This document shows positions 6,500-47,523 of a stretch of 64,000 bases of DNA, piece by piece. How positions within the stretch are numbered: position 1 is the first letter of the stretch; each line of letters opens with the position of its first letter. The DNA is from a virus (taxonomy: Duplodnaviria; Caudoviricetes), in the IMG/VR virus record IMGVR_UViG_3300035661_000004; one strand, given 5' to 3'. A program made the position numbers and the translations under genes. The notes beneath the pieces were generated by a model. It did no database searches, was not told the origin of the DNA, and was given only the letters and a program-made list of their open reading frames with translations.

Positions 6500-6929
6500 G
6501 CTCTCGGCGTTTAGCCCAGTAGGCTTTACGAGCTTCGCTCATCTTACGCCTGGTTTCTTCAGGGTCGCTAAATTCACAAGCCTTAGGTTTTGGTTTCGCC
6601 TTAGCTTGCCTAGCTAGTAATCCAGCCTTCTGCCAATCAGCTAATTGCTTTGATTGAGCTTCTGATGGATTTTTCATTAAAGCTGAACGATGAGCTCTTT
6701 TCTGCTCTCTTTTTGCTTGTAATTCTTCTTCGCTAAGCGGTGTTCTGCGCTTATTAGGAAATCGATTTATAGCAGATAGTCTCATATTTGCCAAATGCTC
6801 AGCTGTAAATGGCCGTTTACGACCTTTATTGGCTAGGCTAATTTTAGCAATTGATTCAGCTGTATGAATTTGCTGTCTATTGCGAACACACCATTCTTCC
6901 TTGAGGCGCTGGTAAGTTCGACTGCACAT
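6477..6929 (-). CDS. NUMOD3-repeat DNA-binding protein, probably a homing endonuclease remnant
   Basis: HTAESIAKISLANKG, FTAEHLANMRLS and EETRRKMSEARK NUMOD3-like repeats; AT-rich; 5' end appears frame-broken. Confidence 0.6.
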   Translation of the reverse strand: MCSRTYQRLKEEWCVRNRQQIHTAESIAKISLANKGRKRPFTAEHLANMRLSAINRFPNKRRTPLSEEELQAKREQKRAHRSALMKNPSEAQSKQLADWQKAGLLARQAKAKPKPKACEFSDPEETRRKMSEARKAYWAKRRELNQTSWS

Positions 6930-6968
6930 CTTGATGCACGTTCGTACTTGTTCATCATAAATATCCGT

Positions 6969-7385
6969 ATGGCACGTGGATTATATACCCCGAAGCATCC
7001 TGAGAAGTACATGGGTGACCCGCGGAAGATCAGGTTCCTGTCGAGCTGGGAGCTCAAGTTCATGCAGGTCTGTGACATGAACCCAAACATCATCTCTTGG
7101 GGGTCTGAGGAGTTTCGTGTCAAGTACTTCAACCCGATTAAGGGGAAAGTTTGCGACTACATCCCTGACTTCATCATCAAGTACAAGGACAGGCAAGGTA
7201 ACCTCATTACAGAGGTGATCGAGATCAAGCCGATGAAGCAGTCCAAGATGACCAAGAAGTCATCGCTGTATGACCAGATAGCGATCGCTGTCAACATGGC
7301 CAAGTGGGCCGCCGCTAAGGCTGTGTGCGAGAGCCATGGCATCCGTTTCCGCGTCGCGACAGAGCAGGAATTGTTCCGAAAGTGA
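6969..7385 (+). CDS. Head completion nuclease (T4 gp4-like, TnsA-like fold)
   Basis: True start MARGLYTPKHPEKYMGD; FLSSWE, WGSEE, YIPDF, EIKP motifs; TAAATA at 6958-6963. Confidence 0.88.
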   Translation: MARGLYTPKHPEKYMGDPRKIRFLSSWELKFMQVCDMNPNIISWGSEEFRVKYFNPIKGKVCDYIPDFIIKYKDRQGNLITEVIEIKPMKQSKMTKKSSLYDQIAIAVNMAKWAAAKAVCESHGIRFRVATEQELFRK

Positions 7386-33959: not shown

Positions 33960-34460
33960 ATGCAAGGCTTCATCTATCTCTGGCGCGACTCGTTGCGTAA
34001 CATGTACTACATCGGCTCTCATGAAGGAGTACCGACAGACAGCTACACCTCATCGTCGCGTTGGTTCAATGGTGAATATCACTATCGACCTCAAGACTTC
34101 AAGCGTCGAATCCTTAAGATCAGCGACATTGAAGAGATTCGAAAGCTAGAATGGGATCTACTAGCCAGAATTAAGGACTGTGAGTACAATACCAAGTACT
34201 ACAATCAGAAAGTCGGTCGCAAGAAAGGTCAATTGCCATGGAATGCAGGCAAGACAATGTCTGAAGACTATTGTAAAGCTATCAGCGAAGGCCGAAAGGG
34301 GAAAGGCACGGGGAAACCTGCCTGGAACAAAGGGGTAAAGAATCCCAATGCAGCTGAAAATGGACGCAAGTCAGCTGAAAAATTGTCTAAGACAATTACA
34401 GGCAGGAAAATTGCCGTCGTTGACGGTAAGAGGACGTGGGTATATCCTGAAGGGGTGTAG
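33960..34460 (+). mobile_element. GIY-YIG (Seg-like) homing endonuclease
   Basis: GFIY...YYIGSH, YYNQK and PWNAGK/AWNKG NUMOD3 repeats; AT-rich. Confidence 0.85.
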
Positions 34461-34712
34461 CCGTTTCTGTTGCCAAGTACGGCTACGAACTCCGAAGGCT
34501 TATTAGGCCGCCATCGCGTAGACAGAGTCGTTTGCGTTTGTAATGCTTTGCGCTGCTTACGGCAGTCACCTATCGAGCGCCTATGGTCATACTACGCGTC
34601 GGTCGATCGCCAAGTCACCCCCACCGAAGAACACATGATATGTGCTTGGGTGGAGGTGCCGGGAATTGAACCCGGGTGTCGCCGCTTTTCTTACCTTCAG
34701 TTTACGCTGTTC
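34452..34712 (-). ncRNA. ssrA: Circularly permuted (two-piece) tmRNA
   Basis: Acceptor piece (CCGGG-TTCAATT-CCCGG-CACCTCC-A, ending at 34651) precedes the coding piece starting GGGGGTG at 34622; G3.U70 pair; tag GCA AAC GAC TCT GTC TAC GCG ATG GCG GCC TAA (ANDSVYAMAA, 34535-34503); outer ends approximate. Confidence 0.92.
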
Positions 34713-34993
34713 AGCTCTTATTTACTTCCACGGATTCTTGTCGAGCTCTTTGTGCAAACGCTCAACGCCGATCTTGGCGATGTAAGCAGGCCCATCCTCT
34801 GACCACACGAAGAAGATCGGGTTGCCGGTGAAGAACGCCAGCATCACCTGATCCACGGTCTCCATGAAGACAGCGTGGATCATGATCCGTGTGCCCCGCA
34901 TCACGTGCAGCTTCTTGTCCCGCAGGACCACGTCATAGTCAAGCGCAAGTCGGTCGATGAACGTTTGTTGAAGCTCCAGGAGCTTGTTCTTGC

Positions 34994-35702: not shown

Positions 35703-36638
35703 TCATGCGGTCTCCAAGCGCCACAGCGGGCGCGCAAATGAGTCATCGCGGATGATCGGCCGCCTGCAGATGTCATGTGTGCGCCCGTAGGCCAAGTGGC
35801 CACGATGGTCGGCAGGCAGGATGATGCCGGTCACCTCATGGATGAAGTCCATGCGATAGCGCATCGAGCCGCTGTACATGTAGGCGATCTGCAGCACCAC
35901 CATGGCAACCTCGCAGAACTTCAGCCAGTCCTCCGTCGGGAGGTCTTTCAGCCTAACATGCGGGTTGATGCCTGTCAGCCAGAAGGTTTCCGCCCGGTAG
36001 ATGTTGCCTAAGCCAGCGATGAAGCTTTGCTCGAGAGCGACATCGCCCATTCGCATGTTCTGCACCCGCTTCGGCGCGCCCTCCTTGAGCGCAACGACCG
36101 TGCCTTTGGCCACCGCCATGTCGGTCATCAGCTTCGGCAGCTCATTGAGCAGGTCAAAGCCGATGCGGCGCTTCAGCTCAGCTTCGGGCATGCCGTCAGG
36201 CCAGTACTCCATGTTGCCAAAGTTGCGCATGTCGGTGTAGACAGCGTGAACCTCGTCCTTATGCAGGCCGTAGTCGCCGCGAAGCTGGACTCTGGCATGC
36301 TTCAACGCCGAGTTGATGATGTCACGCATCGGCACTAGAGCGCCGCCGACATAGGCCTTCTGGTTGTTGTGAGCGACATGGATGCTGTCGGAGGCCGGGT
36401 ACCACCAACCGCTCATGCCCAGAGTGGACGTCAGCTCGCCGCCGTTGTCAAGCGTGAGCTTGATGAGTTTGCCGTGGGCCCGCACTTGTGTGACCACGCC
36501 TGGCTTGAATTTGTCAAGGCCTGGGATGCCTTTCTTGAGCAGCTTGCCTGAGACCAACTCGATGCGTTCGAGGGTGTTGCCGATCACTAGCTCGTCGAGC
36601 AGGTCGGCGTTGCGCTTAACCTCTGGACCTTCAGGCAT
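35703..36638 (-). CDS. Fpg/Nei-family DNA glycosylase/AP lyase
   Basis: N-terminal MPEGPEV, AHGKLI, LGMSG, DMRNFG and H2TH motif IAGLGNIYRAE. Confidence 0.9.
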   Translation of the reverse strand: MPEGPEVKRNADLLDELVIGNTLERIELVSGKLLKKGIPGLDKFKPGVVTQVRAHGKLIKLTLDNGGELTSTLGMSGWWYPASDSIHVAHNNQKAYVGGALVPMRDIINSALKHARVQLRGDYGLHKDEVHAVYTDMRNFGNMEYWPDGMPEAELKRRIGFDLLNELPKLMTDMAVAKGTVVALKEGAPKRVQNMRMGDVALEQSFIAGLGNIYRAETFWLTGINPHVRLKDLPTEDWLKFCEVAMVVLQIAYMYSGSMRYRMDFIHEVTGIILPADHRGHLAYGRTHDICRRPIIRDDSFARPLWRLETA

Positions 36639-37711
36639 GCTCACCCTCGACCGACTGTGTCATGACGGCGGCGCCGTACTTGTCGGTGATCAGCAGCCCA
36701 GCCGCCTGCTCGAGCTCAGGCGTGCTGAAGCTGAAGCTGGCATACGGGCTGCTGATCGACCGAAACCGGAAGTGCCGCTCAGTCAACAGCTCGTGAATGG
36801 CGTCGTAGAGGTTTGAGGGAACGCTGATCATGCATGCACCAGCTTGTGGTGCACGCCGTTGATGACCATGTAGGTCAGCGGCCGTTTGTGCATGTCGGTC
36901 ACCGTACGCTCGCACAGCGCCAAAGCGGTCATGATGTTCTTGTCCGTCACGCCGTCCTTGTACAGGTTGAGGAAGCCCTCGCACTGCTCGTCGGTGGCGA
37001 GCTCGAACAGCTCGTAGAGAACCGCAACCTTGGCGTACTCGATCTTCGCCATGGCCTTTGAGGTCATCGCGTGCAGGTTGTCCTTGTAGGAGCTGAGTAG
37101 CGTATCAAGCGCCAGCAGCTGTTCACGTTTCATCGTTGAGTCCTGTGAAGTGCTTGAAGTCAGGCACGTCATGCGCGCCTGGGTCACGGTCAAAGATCGC
37201 GGTTGCAAGCTCAGCGACCGTCTCGTAGTCGATGAGGAGCGGCTCTCTGTCAGGGTCATGCCCTTCATGCACACGAGCGTGCCCAGGAACCGTCACCTCG
37301 ATGCCCATGCGCCGAATGACGCCTTTGTGCGACAGCGTGAAGGTCGCGATGCTGTCGCTCAGGTACTTCAGCGAAGCGTCATCATAGCCTGCCGTCAGCA
37401 ATGCGTCTTGCAGCTGGAGGCAGAAGGCGCGGTTCACGGCCCGCTTCGCAAGGCTTTCGCCAGCTTATCGCATGCGGCGTTATACTGGCCGAGCTCCGTT
37501 TGCCAGTAGTCCTGGTCGCTCCACTGCCCGGTGTAGCTCGGCACCTTGGCTTGAGCTTGCCGGAGCTGGATGCGAGCCTGCAGCATCTCGCAGACTGCGT
37601 CCGCGATGGCGTGAGCCCCAGGCTCTTGAGGCTCGGGAGCCTTGCCGCCGAACGCGACGTATGGCGGGCTCGAAAGGTCGGCGAAGATCTCGGTGAACAG
37701 ATTGTCTCTCA

Positions 37712-47494: not shown

Positions 47495-47523
47495 ATTGTA
47501 TTTACAGTCGAAGTCGTTGTAAA
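47495..47523 (-). promoter_or_regulatory. Sigma70-type early promoter of the attenuated tRNA operon
   Basis: TTTACA-N17-TACAAT, same consensus as about 11 other copies in the window. Confidence 0.88.

Follow-up and report, generated by a model that had tools for sequence, protein, structure and literature searches.

The window analysed here, a stretch of phage DNA of 64,000 nucleotides, carries on its minus strand a complete circularly permuted (two-piece) tmRNA gene, which is most probably (probability about 0.8) a working ssrA gene, stably carried in the genome of a jumbo, T4-like phage, whose product would act as an ordinary trans-translation RNA. It lies downstream of an Fpg-like glycosylase gene, at a position that is conserved among related phages and that holds both the one-piece and the two-piece form of the gene, which is the new result of this work. 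Phages of a clade with genomes of roughly 360-390 kb keep their tmRNA at this fixed place, in most cases downstream of TAAATA, a shared late-type motif. The fixed position and the shared motif argue that the tmRNA is selected cargo on the phage's own schedule, and not an accidental pick-up.

The identification as a tmRNA is far beyond chance. The original prediction had read a circularly permuted tmRNA from the letters of the minus strand; all of its coordinates match that strand base for base, and the complete gene was recovered by ARAGORN, by Rfam and by direct reading of the sequence. ARAGORN called a tmRNA* at 34412-34741 (minus strand) with the tag ANDSVYAMAA followed by two stops. The Rfam permuted-tmRNA model RF04321 (tmRNA_permuted) matched at 96.7 bits (cut-off 47, E 1.5e-17) over its full length, model positions 1-213 of 213. 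The betaproteobacterial model RF01850 (beta_tmRNA) was also matched over its full length and was the best in the tmRNA clan (E 1e-24), at 86.7 bits for a cut-off of 84, a margin of 2.7 bits only. The minimum-energy fold of the 264-nt precursor (z = -1.98) recovered the T arm and the 3' hairpin, as well as an acceptor stem that the spacer ends lengthen.

The permuted order is directly legible as T arm - CACCUCCACC - 26-28 nt - GGGGGUG (coordinates in Table 1). The acceptor piece, whose 5' end would lie near 34713 to judge from the promoter position, carries the 5' strands of P2 (AGCG, GGU and GCGGCG in the Rfam alignments), the T arm and the acceptor 3' strand, which pairs at 7/7 positions with the acceptor 5' strand of the coding piece, G3.U70 included. 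The two C's that follow the discriminator A73 would be the start of the CCA end, the final A of which is not encoded, as is likewise the case in the bacterial members. The spacer between the two pieces amounts to 28 nt (34650-34623) when these two C's are counted and to 26 nt without them, and is too short for any ORF. It forms a hairpin, and its ends, CAAG / CUUC-GGU, lengthen the acceptor stem in the precursor, with one C.C mismatch in the fold.

Apart from the acceptor 5' strand, the coding piece also holds a D-loop analogue, ACUUGGCGAUCGAC (UGG...UCGAC), and the 3' strands of P2. The latter helix comprises about 12 canonical pairs in three segments (AGCG/CGCU, GGU/ACC and GCGGCG/CGACGC) together with three non-canonical positions; the P2a helix CGACGC/GCGGCG of the original prediction is thus present, with one internal G.A mismatch. 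The hairpin of the PK1 region, CGAU-AGGUGACU-GCCG, is weak, with 2 Watson-Crick pairs and 1 wobble out of 4 in the Rfam alignment, and an alternative PK1 (CUGC/GCAG with GUAA/UUAC) was drawn by eye only. An A-rich stretch precedes the resume codon GCA, which opens the frame GCA AAC GAC TCT GTC TAC GCG ATG GCG GCC TAA TAA, that is, ANDSVYAMAA and a double stop. The tag ends in MAA where LAA is usual, and keeps the hydrophobic-Ala-Ala pattern. The 3' hairpin after the tag is homologous to the 3' hairpin of the beta_tmRNA model. The weak terminator-like site beyond it is contained in the antisense end of the adjoining endonuclease ORF; in the related phage G001, a far stronger terminator is found at the corresponding place.

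Table 1. Positions, in the numbering of the window, of the two-piece tmRNA gene, its parts and the flanking elements discussed in the text.
Feature	Position	Strand	Basis
Fpg/Nei-like DNA glycosylase gene, synteny anchor	35703..36644	-	Pfam PF01149 (E 1.4e-14) and H2TH
TAAATA, candidate T4-type late promoter (-10 element, no usable -35)	34719..34724	-	sequence
Acceptor piece (3' part of the tRNA-like domain)	34649..34713	-	Rfam RF04321 and RF01850 alignments, ARAGORN, fold
T arm	34675-34659	-	
T arm, 5' strand CCGGG	34675-34671	-	
T loop TTCAATT (UUCAAUU)	34670-34664	-	
T arm, 3' strand CCCGG	34663-34659	-	
Acceptor 3' strand CACCTCC (CACCUCC)	34658-34652	-	
Discriminator A73	34651	-	
CC, putative start of the CCA end	34650-34649	-	
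Intervening segment, predicted to be removed on maturation	34623..34648	-	sequence, minimum-energy fold
Spacer hairpin CACAU-AUC-AUGUG (CACAT/ATGTG)	34644-34632	-	
Coding piece (3' end predicted)	34450..34622	-	Rfam alignments, ARAGORN
Acceptor 5' strand GGGGGTG (GGGGGUG)	34622-34616	-	
Tag reading frame	34500..34535	-	ARAGORN, sequence
Resume codon GCA	34535-34533	-	
Double stop TAA TAA	34505-34500	-	
3' hairpin after the tag, GUAGCCG-16 nt-CGGCUAC (7 bp)	34457..34486	-	RF01850 alignment, fold
Weak intrinsic-terminator-like site, CCGUC-AAC-GACGG then CAAUUUUCCU	34404..34426	-	terminator scan, consensus match only

This anatomy places the phage tmRNA, by its best score on the corresponding model, as a divergent member of the betaproteobacterial type, a two-piece lineage for which PMC9004378 cites Sharkady and Williams (2004). 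Among 185,579 species genomes, 90 stretches show the layout CACCTCCACCYAAG - spacer - GGTGGGGGTG, nearly all of them from Rhodocyclales (Rhodocyclaceae, Thauera, Accumulibacter, Propionivibrio and kin), and the phage tmRNA fits this layout, CCACCYAAG ... CUURGGUGGGGG. It shares with the Rhodocyclales tmRNA covered by RF01850 the gene order, the loss of pseudoknots 2-4, the 3' hairpin, and spacer ends that lengthen the acceptor stem (ACCYAAG/CUURGGU). By contrast, it differs in a score barely above the cut-off, in the presence of TAAATA in place of a sigma-70 promoter, and in its tag. Nearly all of the roughly 88 bacterial Rhodocyclales tmRNAs called by ARAGORN indeed carry the tag ANDERFA[L/I/V]AA, from which ANDSVYAMAA departs at four of ten positions. 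The gene had also been described as very compact, a view that did not survive this comparison: its ARAGORN span of 330 nt is to be set against roughly 325-345 nt in nearly all of these same bacterial tmRNAs.

The divergence is also visible at the sequence level. Global identity to 163 other permuted tmRNAs is 55% at most, so that no recent donor can be named among the permuted tmRNAs sampled. In five Rhodocyclales genomes searched by BLAST, the match was limited to about 35 nt in the T arm and acceptor, and the exact T-arm-plus-acceptor pattern gave 0 matches in the 185,579 species genomes. A scan of viral sequences requiring CCACCCAAG, GGGGGTGA and GCNAAYGAY likewise gave 0 matches. With RF01850, G001 reached 116 bits and eight tested viral contigs 108-182 bits, and the score of the present tmRNA is the lowest among the viral examples tested.

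The DNA that surrounds this gene is that of a phage. Its source (G000) is a virus record of IMG/VR that comprises 90,151 bases and is rated about 25% complete, a size that would correspond to roughly 360 kb for the whole genome; it is a fragment of a jumbo, T4-like phage with a genome of about 360-390 kb. The same DNA is present in four DNA sequencing runs, from sediment and microbial mat metagenomes, and no RNA run is among those listed. A neighbouring protein of 693 aa shows about 50% identity to proteins from jumbo phages (phiCbK-like and RSL1), and a protein of 536 aa is 47% identical to one encoded by a 389-kb, 98%-complete viral record (G002). BLASTN of a 601-nt region against 50,697 phage records gave no match, and hence no close copy in cultured phages.

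Since tmRNA genes are common prophage integration sites, the gene could in principle be the host's own ssrA, brought in by a prophage flank or by a chimeric assembly, and it is indeed the case that IMG/VR labels G002 a provirus and trims it just short of its own tmRNA. Such an origin is nevertheless extremely improbable for the gene considered here. Some 40 kb separate it from the nearer end of the record, it shares the strand of the upstream genes, and it is flanked on either side by phage-type genes and by tRNA genes of the phage. This mid-record place, shared strand and phage gene content indicate phage cargo and not a prophage border. The Fpg-like gene and the 596-aa gene which flank it have homologues in G001, in the same order and on the same strand. 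Moreover, its tag and its sequence match no bacterial genome scanned, and the gene follows the phage TAAATA, not a sigma-70 promoter.

The Fpg-like gene lies about 1 kb upstream of the tmRNA, on the same strand, and this arrangement is shared by relatives. In all four relatives with a glycosylase identity of 30% or more (G001, L220, L221 and L341), a tmRNA is found 0.7-1.5 kb downstream, again on the same strand; more distant glycosylase homologues, mostly marine, showed no link to a tmRNA. The tmRNA of G001 is a two-piece gene of beta type (116 bits, tag ANEAFFGKFALVA), and the 596-aa gene downstream of it is shared. L220, L221 and L341 carry standard one-piece tmRNAs, with RF00023 scores of 124, 130 and 95 bits and the tags ASNDATWAIAA, ANDSNYAVALAA and AASNDSSYALAA, respectively. 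The five tmRNAs at the Fpg position are thus three one-piece and two two-piece genes, all with different tags. The presence of both forms at one position offers a natural system in which to study how gene form relates to function and to the match with the host, and how permuted genes spread.

Conservation of this kind bears on whether the gene still works. A copy acquired from a host or from another phage might have become a passenger that drifts without current function, and its long branch, the lowest beta_tmRNA score of the viral examples (86.7 versus 108-182 bits), the mismatches in P2, the weak PK1 hairpin and the adjoining gene for a mobile, GIY-YIG-like (homing) endonuclease would all fit such a copy. 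Yet all the elements of charging and tagging are intact, and the paired positions change in a compensatory manner relative to G001. The P2a helix reads CGACGC/GCGGCG in this phage and AGGCUA/UAGUUU in G001, and covaries fully between the two; the T stem reads CCGGG/CCCGG in the former and AAGGG/CCCUU in the latter. A tmRNA is, in addition, retained across five phages in spite of anchor proteins in the relatives that are only 30-37% identical to that of this phage, and the TAAATA motif is kept in four of the five. A drifting passenger is therefore distinctly unlikely, and a functional gene remains the reading that we prefer.

How two gene forms came to occupy one position was addressed by phylogeny, with a tree of the modules common to both forms. 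In the comparison with betaproteobacterial ssrA, the one-piece phage genes are found on the same side as those of Burkholderiales, which are likewise one-piece, and G001 groups with Rhodocyclales and with viral beta-type copies (SH-aLRT 89). Bacterial Rhodocyclales form a clade of their own (SH-aLRT 99), which excludes the present tmRNA and all viral copies. This tmRNA falls on the two-piece side, on a long branch and without supported placement (UFBoot 25-38 in the 169-row tree), and the 48-row tree gave the same outcome. In AU tests, a clade of all five Fpg-position tmRNAs was not rejected (p = 0.48), nor was a sister relationship between this phage and G001, a constraint whose likelihood was better than that of the free search.

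These trees comprise about 185 alignable columns with long branches, and as such cannot decide between transfer and permutation in place. Replacement of one form by the other through transfer is favoured, as the two-piece copies conform in full to the architecture of the beta type. An alternative is that the two-piece form arose, or became fixed, within the phage lineage at a tmRNA position that it already owned, instead of being captured from a Rhodocyclales host. The retention of a tmRNA at this position in five related phages, the five-gene clade that was not rejected, and the bacterial crown group that leaves out the beta-type copies of viruses are all compatible with this possibility, which we regard as doubtful. 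If it were true, phages would be a place of tmRNA permutation and possibly a vehicle that spreads the permuted form. More likely than this in-place origin is a cassette-like swap of gene forms at a fixed position, perhaps helped by the homing endonuclease.

The timing of expression was approached through the TAAATA motif, which the original prediction had taken for a late promoter. T4 late promoters are of the form TATAAATA and are read by gp55, gp33 and gp45. Like them, the present motif is an A/T-rich, -10-type element without a -35, located close upstream of late-type genes. By contrast, it corresponds only to their last six bases and not to the full TATAAATA, and many of its copies stand just 4-8 nt before a start codon. 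TAAATA occurs 30 times in the 90 kb, versus 1-12 times for each of fourteen other A4T2 hexamers. With ORFs of at least 45 aa taken into account, 11/30 copies are located 4-8 nt before an ORF start (10/100 for pooled controls) and 12/30 are located 9-37 nt before one (19/100), so that 23/30 lie within 37 nt upstream of a start, versus 29/100 controls. One copy, at 47504, precedes the leader of a Ser/Leu/Tyr tRNA operon. The original prediction had linked the tmRNA with a tRNA attenuator in a translation-rescue programme for ribosomes stalled on cleaved RNA; this is a conjecture, for which the one link observed is a TAAATA ahead of both units.

The motif is also conserved before the tmRNA gene itself, in four of the five phages. 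G001, L220 and L221 keep it in the form [G/A]TAAATA, within flanks that otherwise cannot be aligned between these relatives. G001 has AATAAATA before its two-piece gene, while TGTAAATA in L221 and CGTAAATA in L220 each end 7 nt before G1 of the one-piece gene. The most distant relative, L341, has CATAAT in its place. A scan for sigma-70 promoters found none on the tmRNA strand, the nearest -35-like element, TCGACA, being only 13-14 nt from the A/T-rich element.

The late-promoter claim thus gained support from the motif, which is enriched, proximal to genes and kept in relatives. As regards gp55, searches with the T4 protein, phrog_234 and phrog_12791 as queries found no homologue in the 90 kb of the record, or some 25% of the genome; G002 does encode a gp55-family late sigma factor (phrog_234, E 7e-28). 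The "late" label accordingly draws on the motif and on a relative, and a record that is about 25% complete is no evidence that gp55 is absent from the phage. The same applies to the CCA-adding enzyme (PF01743), which was not found in the same 90 kb. We consider transcription of the tmRNA from a T4-type late promoter to be somewhat probable, with lower confidence in this late timing than in function. The transcript would then start about 5-7 nt downstream of TAAATA, near 34713. Read-through from the upstream genes is also possible, since the TAA stop of the upstream ORF overlaps the TAAATA motif.

From a mechanistic point of view, the features described above suggest the following course of events. 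A phage-modified RNA polymerase would start a few bases past TAAATA and yield a single precursor of about 260-300 nt, whose acceptor stem, lengthened by the spacer, would present it to host RNase P for a cut 5' of G1. Trimming of the 3' end and CCA addition by host enzymes would complete the acceptor piece. The two mature pieces, of about 65 nt (acceptor) and about 170 nt (coding), would stay joined by the 7-bp acceptor stem and P2. Host AlaRS would charge this RNA by way of G3.U70 and A73, and host SmpB would bring it to ribosomes that have stalled on mRNAs which are broken or lack a stop codon. Translation would resume at GCA, append ANDSVYAMAA and stop at UAAUAA, the ribosome being recycled late in infection. 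In such a course, the RNA would rely on host SmpB, AlaRS, RNase P and CCA-adding enzyme. The original prediction had seen no SmpB gene, in agreement with the 90 kb of the record, where none was found, and a search of the 98%-complete G002 found none either.

The sharing of host SmpB would also open the way to a different role, that of a modifier or decoy which competes with the host tmRNA for SmpB and for stalled ribosomes. Rescued products would in this case bear the phage tag, ANDSVYAMAA in place of ANDERFALAA, and host adaptors and proteases would read it differently, thereby sparing or redirecting the tagged proteins. Such a role would be in line with a tag that departs from the bacterial ANDERFA[L/I/V]AA at four of its ten positions and with the five different tags of the Fpg-position tmRNAs, and a phage tmRNA reduced to the tRNA domain (DS6A) has been reported to resemble a tmRNA-inhibiting molecule (PMC4131195). 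However, the tag of the present phage keeps an N-terminal AND and a C-terminal AA after a hydrophobic residue, which is the general degron pattern, and a complete tag frame with a double stop has been retained. We therefore consider a decoy unlikely, and ordinary trans-translation the better account of this RNA.

This work also places the gene among the tmRNAs already described in phages. The original prediction had started from the premise that phage tmRNAs are one-piece and had seen novelty in the permuted form. This premise is contradicted by the published two-piece phage tmRNAs (PMC9004378) and by the betaproteobacterial-type ones that are common in IMG/VR, and the novelty claim falls with it. 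Of the 133 unique phage tmRNAs in a survey that covered 18,146 phage genomes, 53 were two-piece according to ARAGORN; these were mostly from aquatic phages, and the one carried by Melnitz, a T4-like phage, was described (Buchholz et al., 2022; PMC9004378). A 2025 tmRNA database lists 79 bacteriophage sequences (PMC11915505). In our pattern scan of IMG/VR, the permuted layout was present in 118 viral contigs at least, and in several of the tested contigs with a beta-type tmRNA, the gene lies beside phage tRNA arrays. The tmRNA considered here is thus one more divergent example of a published and abundant class.

Its closest parallels are Melnitz, Pelagibacter phage Mosig and cyanophages (PMC9004378), with which it shares a permuted ssrA in a lytic T4-like phage, the lack of an integrase context, a complete tRNA-like domain with its tag frame, and an aquatic or sediment setting, alongside which no phage smpB was found here. 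The tmRNA of Melnitz, however, is of alphaproteobacterial type and is associated with an early promoter and a glutamine riboswitch (PMC9004378). By contrast, the present tmRNA scores best as betaproteobacterial type, stands behind a late-type TAAATA without a usable -35, and belongs to a jumbo phage of about 360-390 kb; Rfam gave no riboswitch match in its tmRNA region. Mycobacteriophages such as Bxz1, Cali and Catera, and Bacillus phage G, likewise carry ssrA in large, tRNA-rich lytic genomes, but their tmRNAs are one-piece whereas that of the present phage is permuted (PMC4131195). With regard to annotation, the provirus-trimming step appears to have cut the record of the relative G002 at its own tmRNA, a lesson for the processing of such records.

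Two-piece tmRNA genes matching the betaproteobacterial (Rhodocyclales) model RF01850 were found at eight viral loci (L105, L124, L083, L056, L084, L101, L014 and L007), scoring 108-182 bits and encoding either long tags or tags of which ANDEVYALAA and ANDNHYVLAA are examples. Because these viral copies formed a grade external to the bacterial Rhodocyclales clade in the tree, their placement suggests that beta-type two-piece tmRNA genes constitute a pool of long residence in phages.

Among the IMG/VR matches listed (L007-L124, loci with the permuted layout), TAAATA lay 30-85 nt 5' of the T arm in 33 of 85 unique genes, compared with 3-11 for control hexamers. Many of these sites read TTGACA-N17-TTAAAT(A), a promoter of sigma-70 type and probably an early one; others were TATAAATA-like, devoid of a -35 element and of the late type. 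Since both kinds of site precede viral tmRNAs, promoter class seems to vary among phages, the gene apparently being driven from either class. In the window, TAAATA also precedes the leader ORF of the tRNA operon (see table), and this upstream motif is therefore common to the operon and the tmRNA.

Features of the window
Feature	Position	Strand	Evidence
GIY-YIG-like ORF, 166 aa	33960-34460	+	phrog_314 (homing endonuclease) match, E 2e-10; motif in N-terminal sequence
Fpg/Nei-like DNA glycosylase	35703-36644	-	PF01149, E 1.4e-14; H2TH
TAAATA before leader ORF of Ser/Leu/Tyr tRNA operon	47504	-	13 nt 5' of leader ATG

The GIY-YIG-like ORF (N-terminus MQGFIYLW...YYIGS; no match in a Pfam search) is convergent with the tmRNA, overlapping its 3' tail and a terminator-like site. 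The product resembles free-standing endonucleases of the Seg type, a category to which segB, in the tRNA cluster of T4, belongs. Such an enzyme could drive co-conversion of the adjoining tmRNA allele. No homologue was present in the tmRNA neighbourhoods of the related contigs G001, L220 and L221.

Regarding the glycosylase, whose H2TH match (34.0 bits) fell slightly below the 34.7 cut-off, homologues with 23-31% identity are common in aquatic phage and giant-virus contigs, and linkage to a tmRNA was restricted to those with at least 30% identity. In the related phage G002 (L216; IMGVR_UViG_3300021057_000274, labelled 'provirus' in IMG/VR), the record ends about 450 nt past its glycosylase gene; the untrimmed metagenome contig L220 (Ga0196981_1000006) runs on into a one-piece tmRNA at 6877-7251. 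The G002 phage's own tmRNA was probably taken for a host/prophage border and removed by trimming. In L220, a T-arm-like sequence, GGTAGGTTCGAGTCCTACC, was also observed at about 6800-6870, immediately 5' of the TAAATA of the one-piece tmRNA; ARAGORN did not call a tRNA there, and the sequence may represent either the remains of one or an atypical tRNA.
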